In this document: in pieces, positions 13 through 9,230 of the stretch
Numbering within the stretch: the stretch's first letter is position 1
Layout of the letters: each line of letters opens with the position of its first letter
IMG/VR virus record: IMGVR_UViG_2582580966_000002
Strand: one strand, 5' to 3'
DNA length: 9,230 nucleotides
From: a virus
Taxonomy: Duplodnaviria; Heunggongvirae; Uroviricota; Caudoviricetes
Notes under the pieces: generated by a model
The model's input: only the letters and a program-made list of their open reading frames with translations
Told to the model about the DNA's origin: nothing
Database searches by the model: none
Program-made: the position numbers and the translations under genes

Positions 13-1296
13 CTATGATATGCGCTGAAATAATCCTGCCTGTCTGATACCCGGAGATGATGTCCATAGCATCGGACCACATGCACGCCACGTGCCCGGT
101 AAACGGGTCTCCCCCACATTACCGGAAGCAACCAGGGGAGTACCATCCGAAAGGCAACATGCAGACAGTGATGAGCCGGCAATGGCTGAGCCCGGTGCCA
201 TATCCCCCGAATAACTCGTCGCATAATATGCCGCAAGGACAAAAGAACCGACACCAAACAGTCCGCTGTCAGGACTTCCTGACGGTCCCTGAGGTCCTGC
301 CGGACCTGCGGCTCCCGTATCTCCTTTTGGCCCCTGAGGCCCTGCCTGACCTGCGGCTCCCGTATCCCCTTTTGGCCCCTGTGGTCCTGCCGGGCCTGCA
401 GCTCCCGTATCTCCCTTTGGCCCCTGAGGTCCTGCCGGACCTGCGGCTCCCGTATCTCCTTTTGGCCCCTGAGGTCCTGCCGGACCTGCGGCTCCCGTAT
501 CTCCTTTTGGCCCCTGAGGTCCTGCCGGGCCTGCAGCTCCCGTATCTCCCTTTGGCCCCTGAGGTCCTGCCGGACCTGCGGCTCCCGTATCTCCTTTTGG
601 CCCCTGAGGCCCTGCCTGACCTGCGGCTCCCGTATCCCCTTTTGGCCCCTGAGGCCCTGCCGGGCCTGCGGCTCCCGTATCCCCTTTTGGCCCCTGAAGC
701 CCTGCCGGGCCTGTATCCCCCTTGTCGCCCTTCGGTCCCAGTGGTCCGCCCGGATCGCCCTGCTCACCTTTCGGACCTGTATCCCCCTTATCGCCCTTGT
801 CACCTTTATCCCCTTTCGGCCCCGGTGGCCCTGCCGGGCCTGTATCGCCCTTGTCCCCCTTCTGTCCCTGTGGACCAGTTGCTCCGGTGTCGCCTTTCAG
901 TCCCTGTGGCCCCACGGCAGTTTCGGCTTTCTCAGCAGCTTCTCGCGCCCTGCGCACAGCCTCATCCGCCGCCGCTTCCAGCTTCTTCAGTGCATCAGGA
1001 TAATACGCTGCATCCGTTTCACGGAGCAGAAAGGCATTCAGGGTGCCCGGTTCGTCGTCGGCCATGACATCAATCTCGCCGGCGCATGCCGGCTGACGAC
1101 CTTCCACGCACAAGGTCACACGATAACGCCCCGGCTCAACCTGCATGCTGTAACTGCCCGTTTCGCCTGGCTGGTGCTCTGCCACCGTGGTGACTATCAC
1201 CGTCTCACTCGTTCGCGTGGCTTTCAGCTCTATGGTGCAGTCCGGTACCGGTTTTCCTGTACCATCCTTCAGCACACCTGAAATCTGTACTGACAT
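13..1296 (-). CDS. stf: Side tail fibre protein: lambda Stf-like N-terminal domain (~110 aa), collagen-like Gly-X-Y repeat region (~210 aa), short C-terminal domain (~90 aa)
   Basis: The N-terminus [43 protein letters not shown]... resembles lambda Stf ([26 protein letters not shown]...). It is followed by uninterrupted GXY triplets ([15 protein letters not shown]...). ATG at 1296-1294 verified; stop TAG at 13-15. Confidence 0.8.
286..690. repeat. Tandem array of nine 45-bp repeats (consensus cccctgaggtcctgccggacctgcggctcccgtatctccttttgg), each encoding a 15-aa collagen-like unit of the tail fibre
   Basis: Copies at 286, 331, 376, 421, 466, 511, 556, 601 and 646, read directly from the sequence. 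Copies 4, 5 and 7 are identical; copy 2 equals copy 8; copies 3 and 6 differ from each other by one base. More degenerate 9-bp Gly-X-Y periodicity continues to about 910. Confidence 0.95.
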
Positions 1297-2069
1297 ATTC
1301 CCCCCACAAAAAAGCCCACCAGAACCGGCGGGCTGTCATAACTCTGTGTTACCTGGCTATGGTAGTTCACCGTCATCTGCTGACCACCAAACTGCTCCGC
1401 ATCCACCTGCATCCCCACAATGGCCGTGTTCGGGTAGCACTGTTTCACATCGATGATTTCGGTGTATGACGACCACAGCGTTCTGTTCTGCAGCTGGTCC
1501 GTGGTGCTGTCCGCCGTCTCCCTGACCATCCGGATGTTAAAGGGGCGGGGAGGCAGATTATCCAGAATCACCGAGGCCAGGAACTGTGAGGTGGTCTTGC
1601 CGTTAATGGTGACATCCTTTTCTGTCACCCAGTTACCGTTACGCTGTAACTGAATCAGCAGACGGACAGAGGACGGATTACGGTCACCCTTTGACGTGGT
1701 CTCCACCAGTGACTGCACCCCGAAGGTCACCCGCAGGCGGTCAATGTTCGCTGACGTAATGGTGCGTGTTACCGGTTTTGCCCTGGTCACTTCGACACCC
1801 AGTACAGTTTCAGAGCCGGAGGACTCAAAGCCTTCCGGTGGTGTCTGCTCCTGCTCCCCGGCACGCCAGACCGCGGTCACACCGTGTATCACGGGATTAC
1901 CGTCCGTGTCCGTCAGCGGGGTTTTGTTCACCAGAATACTCTGCAGGCTTTTCACCGGGCCTTCTATCGGTCCCTCACCAATCGCATCAATCACGCTCAT
2001 CATCTGCGTGGATTTGAGATTGTCTTTCGCCTCACGAGGCGTGTGTGCCTTACCGCCACCTTTTCCCAT
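1269..2069 (-). pseudogene. J: Tail tip / host-specificity protein gpJ, N-terminal fragment only (~237 native codons of ~1130), then 29 codons of non-J sequence
   Basis: MGKGGGKAHTPREAKDNLKSTQMMSVIDAIGEGPIEGP...NLPPRPFNIRM...CYPNTAIVGMQVDAEQFGGQQ matches the lambda gpJ N-terminus. The remaining reading frame crosses the stf terminator and start codon and stops at 1269-1271. The ATG at 2069 is preceded by GGGAAGG. Confidence 0.85.
1308..1334 (-). terminator. Intrinsic terminator immediately upstream of the stf start (minus-strand stem AGCCCGCC/GGTGGGCT, loop GGTTCT, T6 tract)
   Basis: Minus-strand sequence agcccgccggttctggtgggctttttt read off the reverse complement of 1308-1334. The stem is 8 bp including one G-U pair. 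It is followed by GTGGGGGGAAT and the stf ATG. Confidence 0.55.
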
Positions 2070-2172
2070 ACAGCCTTCCCCTGAATAAATTAACCGCCAC
2101 TTGCCATTCCGTACAGAAGTCGGATATCCTTCGCCCGAAAAGCATGAAACACATTTCTGCCATGCTAAAGAG

Positions 2173-2202
2173 AAACCCCGGTATCAGCAGATACCGGGGT
2201 TT
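2173..2202. terminator. Bidirectional intrinsic terminator-like hairpin: perfect 12-bp stem AAACCCCGGTAT/ATACCGGGGTTT, 6-nt loop CAGCAG
   Basis: Perfect inverted repeat at 2173-2184 and 2191-2202. It is followed by TCTTTC on the plus strand and by TTTCTCTTT on the minus strand, so it could terminate in both directions. Confidence 0.6.
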
Positions 2203-2274
2203 TCTTTCATGCCCACCGATAATCCTGTTGGTTAAAACCGGTAATGGCATAAAAATTCTGAATATCTTCACATT

Positions 2275-2302
2275 TTCACAAACTGACCGTGGCGCGTATA
2301 AT
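2275..2302 (+). promoter_or_regulatory. Sigma70-type promoter: -35 TTCACA (2275-2280), 16-bp spacer, -10 TATAAT (2297-2302); AT-rich UP-like tract upstream (2246-2268)
   Basis: Hexamers read directly from the sequence: a perfect consensus -10 and a 5/6 match at -35. Predicted transcription start around 2309-2311. Confidence 0.6.
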
Positions 2303-2308
2303 TTCTCT

Positions 2309-2405
2309 GCGTTAATTTTTTTTTCGTGATATAAGAATAATTCCTTACACTTAATCTTCGTAACTCTCCCGCAGTTCCTGTCCGCGATCACTGCGGGATT
2401 TTTTT
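2309..2405 (+). ncRNA. Candidate small non-coding RNA (~95 nt) from the promoter at 2275-2302 to the terminator at 2367-2405
   Basis: Strong promoter and intrinsic terminator about 100 bp apart on the same strand. The interval has no plausible ORF (only GTG-ATA-TAA), is AU-rich, and ends in a hairpin plus U-tail, as Hfq-dependent sRNAs typically do. It runs opposite to all flanking phage genes. Confidence 0.45.
2367..2405 (+). terminator. Intrinsic terminator: 9-bp perfect stem TCCCGCAGT/ACTGCGGGA (2367-2375 / 2390-2398), 14-nt loop, T7 tract 2399-2405
   Basis: Read directly from the sequence. The T-tract is only on the plus-strand side, so it is unidirectional. The loop is longer than in typical terminators. 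Confidence 0.6.
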
Positions 2406-2412
2406 ATTCTTT

Positions 2413-3042
2413 TTACCCCTGCCGCCCGATAACCACGACCTTTCCGCCCCCGCCTTCATCACGGGTGCTGATGTCCTGGGATATACGGCGGGAGCCAACC
2501 AGCATTTCCCCGTAAGGCACCGGCATCGGGTTCCCCTGGGCAATCATGTTATCCAGCGAGGAAAAGTACGTGTTCTGTCTGCCGTTATCCGTTGCGCGGT
2601 AATCCGGTGTTTTTGCCTTCGGGGCCAGCATCTGGGCCACACCGCCCAGTATCATGCTGGCACCCAGTGAAAACAGCATCGTGGTGGCAGAAAAACCACC
2701 GGCACTCAGGGCTGTACCCCATAACGCCATCGAGCCTCCGGCCGTGAAGAAAGAGCCCACGATGGCTGCCGCCCCCAACACAATCTGCAGTCCACCCTTT
2801 CCGGCCCCGGCCAGTCGCGGCACAATGTGGATGACCGTTCCCTCACCCAGCTGTTCGTGAAGGCGGGCGTACACCACCTCCGGTGCCGTGTCTTCACCGG
2901 CAATACGTATCTGGTACCAGCCTTCGTTCATCTGAAGGCGAAAGCCCGGCATCTGCATCGACAGGGCGCGAATGGCTTCCGCTGCCGTGTTCACATACAG
3001 GCTGAGGCGGCGGCCAAATCGTTGTAAATCCCCGTGGTTGCC
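2413..3042 (-). pseudogene. I: Tail assembly protein gpI lacking its native N-terminus (~20 codons) and start codon
   Basis: ORF 2413..3078: ...GDLQRFGRRLSLYVNTAAEAIRAL...QNTYFSSLDNMIAQGN...GGGKVVVIGRQG matches lambda gpI from about residue 21 to the end. The first 15 residues of the track ORF (MMVEAVISGSTVGNH) are FII DNA in another frame. Confidence 0.85.
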
Positions 3043-3364
3043 CACGGTTGAGCCAGAGATAACAGCTTCCACCATCATCCGGCGAAACCCGGTCTATCCA
3101 GAAGTTTTCCTCACCGATGGTCAGCGTGTCTCCACGCCGCAGTTGCCGCACATCATCAGTCCGGACAAACAGGGACGGGCTGGAGCCTTCAACGCGCACG
3201 CCCTGTCCGGCATAGCTGATATTTTCAGGGTCATCAAAAACACCACGTATTACTGCGCCGGACTGCTCACCGGATGTCATGGTGGCTGACGTTCCCATGT
3301 ACCCGCGTATCGTTTCATCGGCGCGGGCAATGGCAGCATCGAACAGGTTATCGAAATCAGCCAC
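2894..3364 (-). pseudogene. FII: Head-tail connector gpFII with altered C-terminus: native residues 1 to ~108, then read-through into I-derived DNA in the wrong frame (48 foreign residues)
   Basis: ORF begins MADFDNLFDAAIARADETIRGYMGTSAT...DRVSPDDGGSCYLWLNRG, matching lambda gpFII (117 aa) up to about residue 108; the following sequence QPRGFTTIWPPPQPV... is not FII. Junction lies near 3037-3042. Confidence 0.8.
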
Positions 3365-3375
3365 AGCGCCTCCCG

Positions 3376-3771
3376 TTATTGCATTCTGGCCAGGCCGCGC
3401 TCTGTCATTTCAGCTGCCACACCGGCAGAGACACGGAACGCCGTTCCCGGCAGCACAAATGCCACAGTGTCATCCCGCGTGGCGTGAAGTGCATCAGTAT
3501 GCAGCGTCACCAGTGCCACGACCGTGACCAGAGCAGCCGTATCAATCACGGTATCCGGCTGCGCTGATACCACCTCATTTTCATGTCCGGTCAGCGCATT
3601 TTCCGGGCTGACAGATGTGTCCTGACCGGCAGCGTCATCCGTGTCATCAAGCTCCTCTTCCAGCTCTGCCACACGGAGCACCAGTTCTTCTTTCGTCCCC
3701 GTCAGGCTGACATCACGGTTCAGTTGCTCACCCAGCACCTGAAGACGGGCAATCAGTTCATCTTTCGTCAT
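3376..3771 (-). CDS. FI: DNA packaging / head completion protein gpFI
   Basis: Within ORF 3376..3810, MTKDELIARLQVLGEQLNRDVSLTGTKEEL...AAEMTERGLARMQ matches lambda gpFI; the start is the Met at residue 14 of the track ORF. Confidence 0.88.
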   Translation of the reverse strand: MTKDELIARLQVLGEQLNRDVSLTGTKEELVLRVAELEEELDDTDDAAGQDTSVSPENALTGHENEVVSAQPDTVIDTAALVTVVALVTLHTDALHATRDDTVAFVLPGTAFRVSAGVAAEMTERGLARMQ

Positions 3772-3812
3772 GGACTCCTCCACAGAGAGAAAATGGCCCC
3801 GAAGGGCCATGA

Positions 3813-4838
3813 TTACGCCAGTTGTACGGACACGAACGCATCAGGATCAGCCAGCAGCATCAGCGGTGCTGACTGAATCATGGTGAACTCACGCGCCGGA
3901 TCGCCGGTGGTCACCCAGTTTTTCGGGTAGCGGGCAGAGGCGTTAATACCTTCGCGCTGTGCGTCCGCATCCTGAATGCAGCCATAGGTGCGCAGACCGC
4001 GTGCCTGAGTGTTCCCCAGCACCATCGTGTTGTCCGGCAGGAAGTTCTTTTTGACGTCGTTTTCCACGTACTGTCCGGAATACACGACGATCGCCGTATC
4101 GCCATACATCCCCTTATAGGACACCGCTTCGCCCAGGTCTTTTACCGCTGTCTCCAGCTCGGAATTAGAGCCGCGACGGGTATCCAGCTTCTCCTTGACG
4201 GCTTTGAAGGAACGGAACAGCGCCCAGCCTTTCGGATCAAACACGATGATATTCACCACGCCGCTGGCGTTCAGCGCGTAGGCTTCGATATCGTCGGTCG
4301 GGTCATACGTGGACTTGTCACGCTTGCTCCACTCCGTGCCGCCGGACTGCGTGATGTTGTTCGCCGCACTGCGGCCCATATCCACCTCAACCGGATCGAA
4401 GGCTTCACCGGTCATGGTGTATTTGCCCTTGAGCACGGCAGAAACGGCCTGCATCTCTTCGACCTGAGCAATGGCCAGCTCTTCGTCACGCATGTTCTGC
4501 ATGATGATGCGACGGCGGCGGTAAGTCGGGTCCGCCAGATTCTGCGGATCTTCATCCGGCAGGCGACGCAGGGTCATCTGCGGATTCACTTCATGCTTGG
4601 GTTTGACATATCCCGGCGTAAATTCAGAGGTGGAGCCGCCACGGGAACGGATAACCTCACCGGAAACAATCGGCGAAACGTACAGCGCCATGTTTACCAG
4701 TCCCGGAATTTGTGAGAGATAGACTTTCTCCGTAGTGAAGGGATAGCTCTCACGGAAAAAGAGACGCAGAAACAGCGGATCAAACTTAAATTTCTGCTCA
4801 TTTGCCGCCAGCAGCTGGGCGGTTGTGTACATCGACAT
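3813..4838 (-). CDS. E: Major capsid protein gpE
   Basis: 341-aa ORF MSMYTTAQLLAANEQKFKFDPLFLRLFFRESYPF...DAFVSVQLA matches lambda gpE in length and sequence; ATG at 4838-4836 verified. Confidence 0.93.
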   Translation of the reverse strand: MSMYTTAQLLAANEQKFKFDPLFLRLFFRESYPFTTEKVYLSQIPGLVNMALYVSPIVSGEVIRSRGGSTSEFTPGYVKPKHEVNPQMTLRRLPDEDPQNLADPTYRRRRIIMQNMRDEELAIAQVEEMQAVSAVLKGKYTMTGEAFDPVEVDMGRSAANNITQSGGTEWSKRDKSTYDPTDDIEAYALNASGVVNIIVFDPKGWALFRSFKAVKEKLDTRRGSNSELETAVKDLGEAVSYKGMYGDTAIVVYSGQYVENDVKKNFLPDNTMVLGNTQARGLRTYGCIQDADAQREGINASARYPKNWVTTGDPAREFTMIQSAPLMLLADPDAFVSVQLA

Positions 4839-4893
4839 AAAAAAATCCCGTAAAAAAAGCCGAACAGGCGGCCTTTAGTGATGAAGGGTAAAG

Positions 4894-5226
4894 TTAAACG
4901 ATGCTGATTGCCGTTCCGGCAAACGCGGTCCGTTTTTTCGTCTCGTCGCTGGCAGCCTCCGGCCAGAGCACATCCTCATAACGGAACGTGCCGGACTTGT
5001 AGAACGTCAGCGTGGTGCTGGTCTGGTCAGCAGCAACCGCAAGAATGCCAACGGCAGCACCGTCGGTGGTGCCATCCCACGCAACCAGCTTACGGGTGGA
5101 GGTGTCCAGCATCAGCGGGGTCATTGCAGGCGCTTTCGCACTCAATCCGCCGGGCGCGGTTGCGGTATGAGCCGGGTCACTGTTGCCCAGCGGCTGGTAA
5201 TGGGTAAAGGTTTCTTTGCTCGTCAT
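4894..5226 (-). CDS. D: Head decoration protein gpD
   Basis: [27 protein letters not shown]...[10 protein letters not shown], 110 aa, matches lambda gpD. The track ORF starts two codons upstream (MFM...). Confidence 0.92.
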
Positions 5227-5235
5227 AAACATCCC

Positions 5236-5841
5236 TTACACTGGTGTGTTCAGCAAATCGTTAACGGCATCAGATGCCAGGTTACCTGCAGCCAGCGGTG
5301 CCGGTGCCCCCTGCATCAGACGATCCAGCGCAGTATCACTGCGCGCCTGTGCACTCTGTGGTGCTGCGGCCAGAATGCGGCGGGCCGTTTCCACGGTCAT
5401 ACCGGGGGGTTCTGCCAGCACGCGGGCCTGTTCTTCGCGTCCGTGAGCCTCCTCACAGTTGAGGATCCCCATAATGCGGCTGTTTTCTGCCGCAACCGCA
5501 GCGTTGATCTGCGCGTTCACGTCCGGCTGCGCCGCGCTGGCGTTTTCGCCCTCCATCGCTGGCACCACGCCAGTAACGTCAGCCTGCGAAGCAGTGGCTG
5601 AAACAGTTGTTGATTGAGTCTCTTTGGTCATTCGCCCTCCTGAGAGACGGGATTTACGTGCATCCAGTGCATCACGCATGATGGTGATCGCATCGGTACT
5701 GTTAACAAGTTCATCAGCCAGTCCGGCATCAATGGCCTCCTGACCGCTGTACACTGCAGCCTCGGTATCCAGCACAGCCTGCACGGACAGGCCGGTATAT
5801 GCCGACACCTTCTGTGCAAACATCCGGCGGGTTGCATCCAT
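5236..5841 (-). CDS. Nu3: Scaffolding protein Nu3, in-frame internal start within C
   Basis: ATG at 5841-5839 (verified on the sequence) begins MDATRRMFAQKVSAYTGLSVQ... in the C frame; 201 codons to the shared stop, as for lambda Nu3. Confidence 0.75.
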   Translation of the reverse strand: MDATRRMFAQKVSAYTGLSVQAVLDTEAAVYSGQEAIDAGLADELVNSTDAITIMRDALDARKSRLSGGRMTKETQSTTVSATASQADVTGVVPAMEGENASAAQPDVNAQINAAVAAENSRIMGILNCEEAHGREEQARVLAEPPGMTVETARRILAAAPQSAQARSDTALDRLMQGAPAPLAAGNLASDAVNDLLNTPV

Positions 5842-6555
5842 CCGGGACTGCAGTGTTTCCCGGACATCATCCGGTAGATGGCTGTAGGGGTTGCCATCCA
5901 CCTTATGGCTGCCGCTGTAAATCAGCGTGATTTCCACGCCCTGTTTCTCCAGCGCAGCACCGTAATTACTGTGAGCCATCATGACGCCGATGGAGCCTGT
6001 CCGGGCGGTCTGCGTGACCAGACGCCGGGAGGCGGCACTGGCAAGCAGCTGACCTGCGCTGCAGTTCATGTCATTGGCCAGCGCCCATACCGGCTTTATG
6101 TCACGCACACGGGCGATGATGTCAGCGCAGTCAAATGCCCCTGCCACCATTCCGCCGGGCGTGTCCATATCCAGCAGAATGCCGTCCACCATCGGGTCGC
6201 TGGCAGCCTGTTGCAGACGGGCGATAATGCCGTTGTAACCAGTCATCCCCGAATACGGCTGCAGCGCCCGCGTCCGGCAGACCAGCGTGCCGGAAACCGG
6301 CAGCACGGCGATGCCGTTCATGACCTGATAACTGCGGGCCTGTCGTGGTCCGTCATCATTAACGGATAACGCCAGCTTCGCGGGTGCCTCTCCGGCAGTC
6401 AGGCTGTCACCGGACACCGCATCCGTCAGGCGGCTGATCCCAAGCTGGCCTGCAAGCGCACAAAAGAAAACCCGCGCATAGGCGGGTTCAAGCATAAGCG
6501 GCTCATTAAAGGCCATGCTGGCAATATGCGGGAGATTACGCAGCTCTGCTGTCAC
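5236..6555 (-). CDS. C: Head maturation protease / scaffold processing protein gpC
   Basis: ORF 5236..6690 contains VTAELRNLPHIASMAFNEPLMLEPAYARVFF...AVNDLLNTPV, matching lambda gpC (439 aa). The native start is the GTG at 6555-6553, giving 439 codons and a 20-nt overlap with the B stop; the upstream part of the track ORF is B read in another frame. Confidence 0.9.
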   Translation of the reverse strand: MTAELRNLPHIASMAFNEPLMLEPAYARVFFCALAGQLGISRLTDAVSGDSLTAGEAPAKLALSVNDDGPRQARSYQVMNGIAVLPVSGTLVCRTRALQPYSGMTGYNGIIARLQQAASDPMVDGILLDMDTPGGMVAGAFDCADIIARVRDIKPVWALANDMNCSAGQLLASAASRRLVTQTARTGSIGVMMAHSNYGAALEKQGVEITLIYSGSHKVDGNPYSHLPDDVRETLQSRMDATRRMFAQKVSAYTGLSVQAVLDTEAAVYSGQEAIDAGLADELVNSTDAITIMRDALDARKSRLSGGRMTKETQSTTVSATASQADVTGVVPAMEGENASAAQPDVNAQINAAVAAENSRIMGILNCEEAHGREEQARVLAEPPGMTVETARRILAAAPQSAQARSDTALDRLMQGAPAPLAAGNLASDAVNDLLNTPV

Positions 6556-7708
6556 TCTTCTCCTCCTCTGTTGATTGTCGCAGTCCGGATTCAAATGCCG
6601 CAGCCGCCCAGGCGGGCGGTTTAAGACCGGCTGCACGGCGCTCCATCGTTTCACGGACCTGCTGGGCAAAAATTTCCTGATAGTCGTCACCGCGTTTTGC
6701 GCACTCTTTCTCGTAGGTACTCAGTCCGGCTTCTATCAGCATCACCGCTTCCTGTACTTCTTTCAGACCATCGATGGCCATACGACCGGAGCCTATCCAG
6801 TCACAGTTCCCCCAGGCGCTGCGGGCTTCCTGAAAGCTGAAACGCGCTTTTGAAGGTAACGTCACCACGCGGCGAACGATGGCCTCTTCCAGCCAGCACA
6901 GAAACATCTGGCTCGCCTGACGGGATGCGACGAATTTTCGCCGCCCCATAAAGTACGCCCACGACTCGTTCGCACTGGCCCGTGCCGTGGAATAGCTCAT
7001 CTGGGCGTAATTCCGGGAAAGCTGCTCATACGAGACACCCAGCCCGGCAGCGATATACCGCAACAGTGACTGCTCAAACACGGAGTAGCCGTTATCCGTA
7101 TCCTGAGCCGTCTGCAGGTTCAGTGAGTCACCCGGCATCAGGTGCGGCACTTTTGCGCCTCCCAGCCGAACCGGTGCTGCGGCGTAATACGCGGCAATTT
7201 CACCAATCCAGCCGGTCAGCTTGTCCCGCTGCTCCTGACTGTTCGCGCCCAGAATAAAATCCATCGCTGACTGCGTATCCAGCTCACTCTCAATGGTGGC
7301 GGCATACATCGCCTTCACAATGGCGCTCTGCAGCTGCGTGTTCTGCAGCGTGTCGAGCATCTTCATCTGCTCCATCACGCTGTAAAACACATTTGCACCG
7401 CGGGTCTGCCCGTCCTCCACGGGTTCAAAAACGTGAATGAACGAGGCGCGCCCGCCGGGTAACTCACGGGGTATCCATGTCCATTTCTGCGGCATCCAGC
7501 CAGGATAGCCGTCCTCGCTGACGTAATATCCCAGCGCCGCACCGCTGTCATTAATCTGCACACCGGCACGGCAGTTCCGGCTGTCGCCGGTATTGTTCGG
7601 GTTGCTGATGCGCTTCGGGCTGACCATCCGGAACTGTGTCCGGAAAAGCCACGACGGACTGGTATCCCAGGTGGCCTGAACGAACAGTTCACCGTTAAAG
7701 GCGTGCAT
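6536..7708 (-). pseudogene. B: Portal protein gpB, N-terminally truncated (~140 codons missing; remnant begins at MHAFNGELFVQATWDT)
   Basis: ORF 6536..7732 (the track start is a TTG; first ATG at 7708-7706). The protein from MHAFNGELFV to ...STEEEKSDSRAA matches the C-terminal ~390 residues of lambda gpB (533 aa). It lacks its own start region and ribosome-binding site, and lies in the same frame as A immediately after the A stop codon. Confidence 0.85.
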
Positions 7709-7751
7709 GCAGTGCCGCACGGGCAGCGGCAAGTTCTTCCTGTCGCGTCAT
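7695..7751 (-). pseudogene. W: Head-tail joining gene W remnant: first 15 codons only ([15 protein letters not shown]), then 3 foreign codons and TAA
   Basis: Hand translation of the minus strand from ATG 7751-7749 gives [18 protein letters not shown]-stop. The first 15 residues equal the lambda gpW N-terminus ([21 protein letters not shown]...); sequence after codon 15 is B-derived, read out of frame. Confidence 0.8.
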
Positions 7752-9230
7752 TCATCCTCTCCGGATAAGGCACGGGCGTAATCTGCCAGTGTTTTCTTGT
7801 TGGTTGCTGCACCATCCTCTTCCTTCAGGCTCGCCAGCAGTGCACTGAGATCCAGCTGCCAGCGGGAAATACTGATGCGCAGCGCCGCCAGCGCATAAAC
7901 GAAGCAGTCGAGCGCCTCATTGCGTCGTTTTTTGCTGTCCCACAGTATTTTTTTCCTGCCATCCACCCATTTTTCGACCTGCTCTTCAGCCGTCAGCTGC
8001 TGCGCTTCGGTCAGATCAAAAATATCCGGGTTATTCGGGAAGTGAACGGCACCGGGAAGCGGTTCATCCCCTTCCGGCGTCAGTGTGAAGCGGTTATAAA
8101 TCTGCTCTTTCGCGGTATCCGTACCGATTTCGGTAAGGTAAACCCCGTTTTTGTTTCGCTTACGTGGCATGCTGGCCACCGGCTTTCCGTAGACGGATGC
8201 CCCTTTAATGGGGATCCCCCGGAACAGCCCATGTTTTTTCGAGCGTTCATACACGATGGTCGGGTCAATCCCGCCAGTATCCCAGCAGATACGGGATACC
8301 GACATTTCTGCACCATTCCGGCGGGTATAGGTTTTATTGATGGCCTCATCCACACGCAGCAGCGTCTGTTCATCGTCGTGGCGGCCCATAATAATCTGCC
8401 GATCAATCAGCCAGCTTTCCTCACCCGGCCCCCATCCCCATACGCGCATTTCGTAGCGATCCAGCTGGGAGTCGATACCGGCGGTCAGGTAAGCCACACG
8501 GTCAGGAACGGGCGCTGAATAATGCTCTTTCCGCTCTGCCATCACTTCAGCATCCGGACGTTCGCCAATTTTCGCCTCCCACGTCTCACCGAGCGTGGTG
8601 TTTACGAAGGTTTTACGTTTTCCCGTATCCCCTTTCGTTTTCATCCAGTCTTTGACAATCTGCACCCAGGTGGTGAACGGGCTGTACGCTGTCCAGATGT
8701 GAAAGGTCACACTGTCAGGTGGCTCAATCTCTTCACCGGATGACGAAAACCAGAGAATGCCATCACGGGTCCAGATCCCGGTCTTTTCGCAGATATAACG
8801 GGCATCAGTAAAGTCCAGCTCCTGCTGGCAGATGACGCAGGCATTATGCTCGCAGAGATAAAACACGCTGGAGGGGTCATCCGGCGTCCATTTGAGGCCA
8901 AACGGCGTCTCTTTGTCGCCAAATTTAAGATACTGCTCCTCCCCGCAGTGCGGGCAGGCAACATGAAAACGCATAAAATGCGGGGATTCACTGGCTGCAC
9001 GCTCAATCTGGCAGGTGCCTCTCACTTTGGGCGTGGAGCCACGGATGGACTTTGGCCAGACCGAGCCTTCAATACGCTTATCGCCCAGGAACGTCGGAGA
9101 GCCTTCCTGTTCAATATCCTCATCAAAGGCAGCAAGTTCATCATACCCCGCCACATCCACTGACTTTTCACGGTAGTTTTTTGCCGCTTTACCGCCCAGG
9201 CACCAGAAGCCACGACCATTGGAAAAACGC
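7748..9230 (-). CDS. A: Terminase large subunit gpA, 3' portion (N-terminal ~150 codons lie beyond the window edge)
   Basis: ORF 7748..9160 and its open upstream extension to the window edge (frame hand-translated to ...RFSNGRGFWCLGGKAAKNYREKS before the GTG at 9160). The C-terminus ...KKTLADYARALSGEDE matches lambda gpA as I recall it. Stop TGA at 7748-7750 overlaps the W ATG (7749-7751) as in lambda. Confidence 0.9.
   Translation of the reverse strand, partial: RFSNGRGFWCLGGKAAKNYREKSVDVAGYDELAAFDEDIEQEGSPTFLGDKRIEGSVWPKSIRGSTPKVRGTCQIERAASESPHFMRFHVACPHCGEEQYLKFGDKETPFGLKWTPDDPSSVFYLCEHNACVICQQELDFTDARYICEKTGIWTRDGILWFSSSGEEIEPPDSVTFHIWTAYSPFTTWVQIVKDWMKTKGDTGKRKTFVNTTLGETWEAKIGERPDAEVMAERKEHYSAPVPDRVAYLTAGIDSQLDRYEMRVWGWGPGEESWLIDRQIIMGRHDDEQTLLRVDEAINKTYTRRNGAEMSVSRICWDTGGIDPTIVYERSKKHGLFRGIPIKGASVYGKPVASMPRKRNKNGVYLTEIGTDTAKEQIYNRFTLTPEGDEPLPGAVHFPNNPDIFDLTEAQQLTAEEQVEKWVDGRKKILWDSKKRRNEALDCFVYALAALRISISRWQLDLSALLASLKEEDGAATNKKTLADYARALSGEDE

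Follow-up and report, generated by a model that had tools for sequence, protein, structure and literature searches.

A 589-bp W-B deletion in a lambda-type Escherichia coli prophage and its probable place in stepwise prophage erosion

A deletion that joins codon 15 of gene W to the interior of the portal gene B was found in a lambda-type prophage of E. coli. The element that carries it has very probably arisen by stepwise erosion of such a prophage, in a natural E. coli isolate, through deletions at short microhomologies. The stretch of DNA analysed, hereafter the window, has 9,230 nucleotides and makes up all of contig JMGU01000151.1 (assembly GCA_000687025.1). The W-B deletion, which had been proposed in an initial annotation made from the sequence alone, is seen when the window is compared with lambda and also with its nearest intact counterpart among E. 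coli prophages, and it is taken as real but clonal. Prophage erosion by deletion is a well-known process (reviewed in PMC6379469); this W-B allele is undescribed.

Position and size of the W-B deletion

All genes of the window read on the minus strand. The reverse-complemented window was therefore compared with the lambda genome (J02459) using blastn, which returned two blocks: lambda 1154-2678 corresponds to window 7706-9230 (98.4% identity, ungapped) and lambda 3264-7925 to window 3051-7709 (97.2%). Because both flanking blocks are near-identical to lambda, the W-B junction is not a chance resemblance. Four bases, CATG at window 7706-7709, belong to both blocks. This motif is found in W at lambda 2675-2678 (codon 15 CAT plus G) and in B at lambda 3264-3267 (the last base of codon 143 plus the ATG of Met144), and the 589 bp of lambda absent from the window are 2679-3267, or 2675-3263 if CATG is given to the other side. 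In a base-by-base alignment with lambda and with the prophage of E. coli 23CRST047, the closest intact one, the window follows W as far as CATG and, beginning with CATG, follows B. A microhomology of at least 4 bp is expected at 1.6% of random junctions. The junction and the two reading frames that meet at it are:

7706..7709, no strand: deletion junction 1 (W-B), CATG microhomology common to W and B, 589 bp gone
7695..7751, minus strand: W remnant (W'), consisting of W codons 1-15, three out-of-frame B-derived codons and TAA; 18 residues, as against 68 in gpW
6536..7708, minus strand: portal fragment (B'), 390 codons corresponding to lambda gpB 144-533, no Shine-Dalgarno sequence

The deletion removed W codons 16-68, the ribosome-binding site and start codon of B, and B codons 1-143. 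On the W side the ATGA overlap of the A stop and the W start is kept at 7751-7748, as in lambda, the W Shine-Dalgarno sequence (GGAGAGG) is intact, and codons 1-15 are identical to those of lambda; they are followed by Ala-Arg-Leu-stop, which closes an 18-codon ORF (7751-7695). Since 589 is not a multiple of three, B continues in another frame and W stops after 18 codons. The initial annotation had described an intact W start with 15 codons in an ORF at 7695-7751, then a switch about 140 codons into B, out of frame relative to W, within the string CATGCAC. Pairwise alignment with lambda W and B, the check that it had suggested, defined the exact breakpoint and bore out each of these points: the coordinates are exact, the codons match lambda, the B ATG lies 43 nt from the W ATG, the switch falls at codon 144 (Met144, MHAFNGELFV...), and the microhomology at 7706-7709 is the 4-bp CATG.

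On the B side the frame is open from Met144 (ATG at 7708-7706) to the normal B stop at 6536, and 386 of its 390 residues are identical to lambda B 144-533. A search for GGAG, GAGG or AGGA within 25 nt upstream of the B' ATG found none. The B' ATG precedes the W' stop by 11 nt, and weak termination-reinitiation is therefore possible; through it B' could perhaps be translated at a low level.

Occurrence of the junction in other genomes

The 36-nt string across the W-B junction, together with an identical 390-aa product, was also found in JNRI01000098, JNRH01000099 and JNRL01000097, so that the junction is carried by four assemblies from two WGS accession series. Over 3 kb the four junction-bearing contigs are identical save for two G/T differences private to the window, and these assemblies may be one clone sampled several times and not independent events.

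A 45-mer across the W-B junction was absent from 5,426 complete E. coli genomes, as were the 45-mers across the two other junctions of the window (see below), while a control 45-mer just inside B matched 823 complete genomes, which demonstrates that the short-query search works. The W-B junction gave zero matches in the GTDB species representatives and in the JGI metagenomes. A single match was obtained in IMG/VR, and this was a copy of the JNRL contig (8,065 bases, equal junction position). The allele is therefore not widespread, given that its junction is missing from the complete genomes, the GTDB representatives and the JGI metagenomes.

The window stems from a short-read draft, and its contig is 9,230 bp long and ends in repeats (the collagen-like stf repeat and lambdoid terminase DNA), which would speak for a misjoin by the assembler of the two sides of a W-B region that is intact in the real genome. 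We consider such a misjoin highly improbable. The same junction was recovered in four assemblies from two accession series, the DNA on either side of it is single-copy in the contig, and the 4 bp shared lie far under any assembler k-mer. The two other deletions in the window bear the same signature, and their chimeric ORFs recur in at least seven contigs, an independent Logan assembly included. A misjoin of unique sequences through an overlap of 4 bp is not to be expected from an assembler, and the deletion was therefore taken as real.

A second alternative is that the window shows the natural gene order of another lambdoid phage, whose portal gene would be shorter and begin at this point and whose W would be absent or located elsewhere; B' does begin with ATG, and automatic annotation calls it as a 390-aa Phage_portal_2 gene. 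Up to the very breakpoint, however, the flanks match lambda with 97-98% identity, the ATG is the internal Met144 of B and lacks a Shine-Dalgarno sequence, and the match of B' to the Pfam model Phage_portal_2 (PF05136) covers profile positions 111-354 of 354, the first 110 being gone, whereas that of lambda gpB covers 2-354. In the phage collection 98 records matched a 2,831-base query, and 83 of them covered at least 80% of it. All 25 listed phage records align in two pieces that span 3,420 bases, so that W-B is continuous in each of them, and every listed E. coli record likewise shows a continuous W-B region. No listed record had a continuous natural gene of another phage at the junction, which the initial annotation had named as evidence that would speak against a deletion. 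No plaque-forming phage with the W'-B' layout was found, and the junction is missing from the genome and metagenome collections given above. A natural arrangement is thus extremely unlikely, and a deletion in a lambda-type prophage is the reading followed below.

Two further deletions beyond FII

Beyond FII the window is not collinear with lambda. The order there, according to PHROG, Pfam and phage BLAST assignments, is I, an N-terminal piece of J and a side-tail-fibre gene. Two deletions were defined in this part by alignment with the intact 23CRST047 prophage, a PPompW phage and lambda; the breakpoints relative to the 23CRST047 prophage were read from MAFFT alignments, and the sizes of the deletions were counted by hand. 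The features are:

3034..3036, no strand: deletion junction 2, CAC microhomology, FII codon 110 joined to the last ~14 codons of K
2894..3364, minus strand: FII chimera (FII'), 156 aa, FII 1-110 followed by 46 unrelated residues out of frame through K/I DNA
2413..2994, minus strand: I, tail tip assembly protein (PHROG 32, Pfam Lambda_tail_I, gene calls)
1358..1359, no strand: deletion junction 3, TA microhomology, J codon 237 joined to a point 1-3 nt past the lom stop
1269..2069, minus strand: J remnant (J'), 266 aa, J codons 1-237 of ~1,157 followed by 29 out-of-frame codons
13..1296, minus strand: 427-aa gene for an stf-like side tail fibre, with a tail-fibre domain at the N-terminus (PHROG 366; Pfam phage_tail_N and Collagen)

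Relative to the 23CRST047 prophage, deletion 2 took ~6,965 bp comprising Z, U, V, G, T, H, M, L and most of K. In FII' the first 110 residues are identical to lambda FII at 104 positions, the sequences diverge afterwards, and the Pfam domain Phage_attach spans residues 8-105. The C-terminal loop of FII consists of residues 108-117 (PMC10721106). FII is not intact, most of this loop being replaced after residue 110. I is complete in its 193-aa PGAP form; the 223-aa form of lambda would miss its first ~17 codons. Deletion 3 took ~3,432 bp relative to the 23CRST047 prophage, namely the rest of J and lom. J' was assigned through PHROG 31/1727 and Pfam FNIII-A_GpJ, and it lies directly upstream of the stf-like gene.

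The microhomologies at the three junctions (4, 3 and 2 bp) sum to 9 bp as against ~2 expected by chance (P ~0.002 under a uniform-base model). This excess over chance fits microhomology-mediated illegitimate recombination. On the explanation that we propose, the 589 bp would have been lost by illegitimate recombination at the 4-bp CATG microhomology. The FII-K and J-lom deletions, which have the same short-microhomology signature, together removed the tail tube, tape measure and tip genes. W, the N-terminus of B, Z-L and most of K and J are thus absent from the window, a loss of genes essential for virion production of the kind seen in defective prophages.

Retained head genes

Apart from W and B, the head genes of the window are:

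7748..9230, minus strand: A, terminase large subunit, codons 149-641; frame open, 5' part beyond the contig end
5236..6555, minus strand: C, protease/scaffold, 439 aa; intact, of equal length to lambda C and sharing 423 of 439 residues with it
5236-5841, minus strand: Nu3, nested in C; intact
4894..5226, minus strand: D, head decoration protein, 110 aa; intact, 108 of 110 residues identical to lambda
3813..4838, minus strand: E, major capsid protein, 341 aa; intact, 334 of 341 residues identical to lambda
3376..3771, minus strand: FI, 131 aa, a gene call; open, 115 of 131 residues identical to lambda FI

The translation of A differs from lambda A by six substitutions in 493 residues. The initial annotation had regarded A, C, Nu3, D, E and FI as intact, and this holds for C/Nu3, D, E and FI and for the part of A within the window: all are open, with 88-99% protein identity to lambda. 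The order A-W-B-C/Nu3-D-E-FI-FII is collinear with the lambda head module over the two blocks of 98.4 and 97.2% identity. Frameshifts and stops are lacking in the retained genes. B' likewise has no frameshifts and differs from lambda by 4 nonsynonymous and 14 synonymous changes (dN/dS 0.08), which resembles its neighbours. Since the retained genes are without frameshifts and stops and the differences in B' are like those of its neighbours, the data are consistent with a deletion that is recent relative to point-mutational decay. The stop-free state of the head genes is compatible with a recent deletion and also with selection to retain them.

The two differences private to the window contig relative to JNRI and JNRH are G-for-T changes at window 9146 and 8217. 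One is synonymous and the other turns FRVIP of terminase A into FRGIP. Both lengthen G runs, and they could be sequencing errors.

Predicted effects on portal and adaptor

In lambda, B is needed for packaging-competent proheads and W for the joining of gpFII and tails, and the loss of both is lethal for virion production. In conditional-lethal mutants of these genes, no portal means that no packaging-competent prohead is formed, and without gpW the filled heads cannot bind gpFII or tails. The same phenotype is predicted here; in contrast to a point (amber) mutation, a natural 589-bp deletion would take both functions at once.

Solved structures of the lambda portal exist (PDB 8k38 and others), and the domains of gpB have been delimited by cryo-EM as wing (24-249 and 368-452), stem (250-279 and 343-367), clip (280-342) and crown (453-511; PMC10721106). 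B' lacks the N-terminal propeptide and ~120 residues of the wing (24-143) and retains the stem, the clip, the tunnel-loop region and the crown. It therefore has neither the complete wing nor the native start and ribosome-binding site of a full-length lambda-family portal. It is not to be expected that a fragment lacking ~120 wing residues assembles into a working dodecamer. The adaptor gpW has 68 residues and is made up of a helix bundle, a beta-hairpin and a portal-binding C-arm (PMC10721106); W' supplies 15 native residues before a frameshifted stop, and on the predicted frame the gpW head-tail adaptor cannot be made.

The initial annotation had concluded that there is no functional portal. 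The structural part of this conclusion stands, B being without residues 1-143, and the functional part would be a prediction, as a 390-codon B' is open from Met144. Its further claim, that the element cannot produce particles on its own, is likewise supported, except that the W-B deletion is not the sole cause: two larger deletions lie in the same window. More generally, we infer how the recombination took place, that the portal has lost its function, and neutrality; the predicted loss of function is based on gene content.

Sister assemblies and chromosomal context

The assemblies JNRW and JNRX carry FII' and J' chimeric ORFs identical to those of the window, and junctions 2 and 3 are therefore common to them. 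Both have a fourth deletion (JNRW ~3990-4060, JNRX ~1190-1260) that fuses an esterase-like N-terminus to E ~60 codons before its stop; the esterase-like ORF lies downstream of the tRNA-Met/Arg/Arg cluster of the prophage. The fourth deletion removes the lysis genes, cos, Nu1, A, W', B', C, D and most of E. This extra deletion in the sister assemblies shows ongoing erosion.

The window contig itself is without chromosomal flank. In JNRW the element adjoins potB-potA-pepT-roxA-phoQP-purB, a flank that shares 99.8% identity with E. coli 23CRST047 (NZ_AP045820.1), in which an intact lambda-like prophage lies beside the same genes. In JNRX the element adjoins an integrase and genes of the argW region, and the differing placement in JNRX and JNRW may reflect either two copies or a recombinant.

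The sister assemblies also bear on whether the remnant has been kept for a selected function, B' or the A-C-D-E module hindering superinfecting lambda-like phages, or the whole being a satellite-like element mobilised by a helper. A, C/Nu3, D, E and FI are still open, the portal domains from stem and clip to tunnel-loop region and crown are retained in B', and the position of its ATG relative to the W' stop is a geometry that can permit termination-reinitiation, all of which would suit such a function. Yet only a few assemblies, nearly identical to one another, carry the allele. The head module, B' included, is entirely gone from sister assemblies, which argues against selection to keep it; no Shine-Dalgarno sequence precedes B'; and a recent event accounts equally well for the lack of point-mutational decay. 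A selected function is on this evidence very unlikely. Its more specific forms are still harder to credit, namely that gpB(144-533), produced via reinitiation, co-assembles with the portals of superinfecting phages and poisons prohead nucleation, or that a helper mobilises the retained A-C-D-E genes. If prohead nucleation were indeed poisoned in this way, the remnant would be an accidental superinfection-interference gene.

Two classifications were considered and rejected. A satellite or domesticated module as the main reading was discarded because sister strains delete the head module. Assignment to a PICI or capsid-forming PICI, for which one would look for a compact architecture recurring across many hosts with an integrase, a replication module and helper-interference genes of its own, does not fit either: the DNA is of ordinary lambda type, the junctions are absent from the 5,426 genomes, and further deletions have occurred in the sister assemblies.

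Comparison with known prophages

The element was compared with intact lambda-type forms and with defective prophages. With lambda and the 23CRST047 prophage it shares the gene order and, over the retained DNA, a nucleotide identity of 97-98% (lambda) and 98.6% (23CRST047). In contrast to the intact lambda-type forms it lacks 589 bp at W-B, ~7.0 kb from the 3' end of FII to K, and ~3.4 kb from J codon 238 to lom. It also differs from lambda in that its K-I-J part is of the PPompW/O157-prophage type (93-94% identity) and not of the lambda type.

Examples of defective prophages are DLP12, Rac, Qin and e14 of K-12 and the defective Sp prophages of O157 Sakai, and the cryptic prophages of K-12 are old and widely shared. 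Unlike the latter, the window element appears much younger, with no frameshifts or stops and with alleles that occur within one small group of isolates. It resembles the defective E. coli prophages termed 'cryptic' or 'grounded' (PMC6379469) in being lambdoid and in having lost essential morphogenetic genes by internal deletions while the neighbouring genes stayed open.

For annotation, the 390-aa portal, 156-aa FII, 193-aa and 266-aa J ORFs are deletion products or chimeras that should be marked as pseudogenes, and the element should not be counted among intact prophages; beyond annotation it is of little importance. It does offer a snapshot of early erosion, with three or four deletions at microhomologies of 2-4 bp, no point-mutational decay and related isolates at different stages, and it may serve as an example for studies on the rate and route of prophage inactivation.

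Other features of the window

The stf-like gene contains a 45-bp collagen-like tandem repeat of 9.5 copies (window 287-713). Among the sister assemblies the gene is called at 397, 412, 427 or 442 aa, each step being one 15-aa unit, and these steps reflect either real copy-number variation or short-read collapse. Antisense to the collagen-like repeats lies a 336-aa ORF (57-1067, plus strand) with no PHROG match, which most likely is no gene but a consequence of the periodic, GC-rich repeat.

No tRNA was found in the window by ARAGORN, and Rfam gave no family at the gathering threshold over the window, nor with relaxed thresholds over the gap between I and J. This gap is AT-rich and ~340 bp long (window 2070-2412). 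PPompW phages and the 23CRST047 prophage share it, whereas the gap of lambda measures only 60 bp. Antisense to the tail genes it contains, in the window, a near-consensus promoter-like sequence (TTCACA-16-TATAAT, 2275-2302) and a terminator-like hairpin (2381-2397), and on the gene strand a GC-rich hairpin at ~2200-2170. The I-J gap may be a small moron or an sRNA locus.
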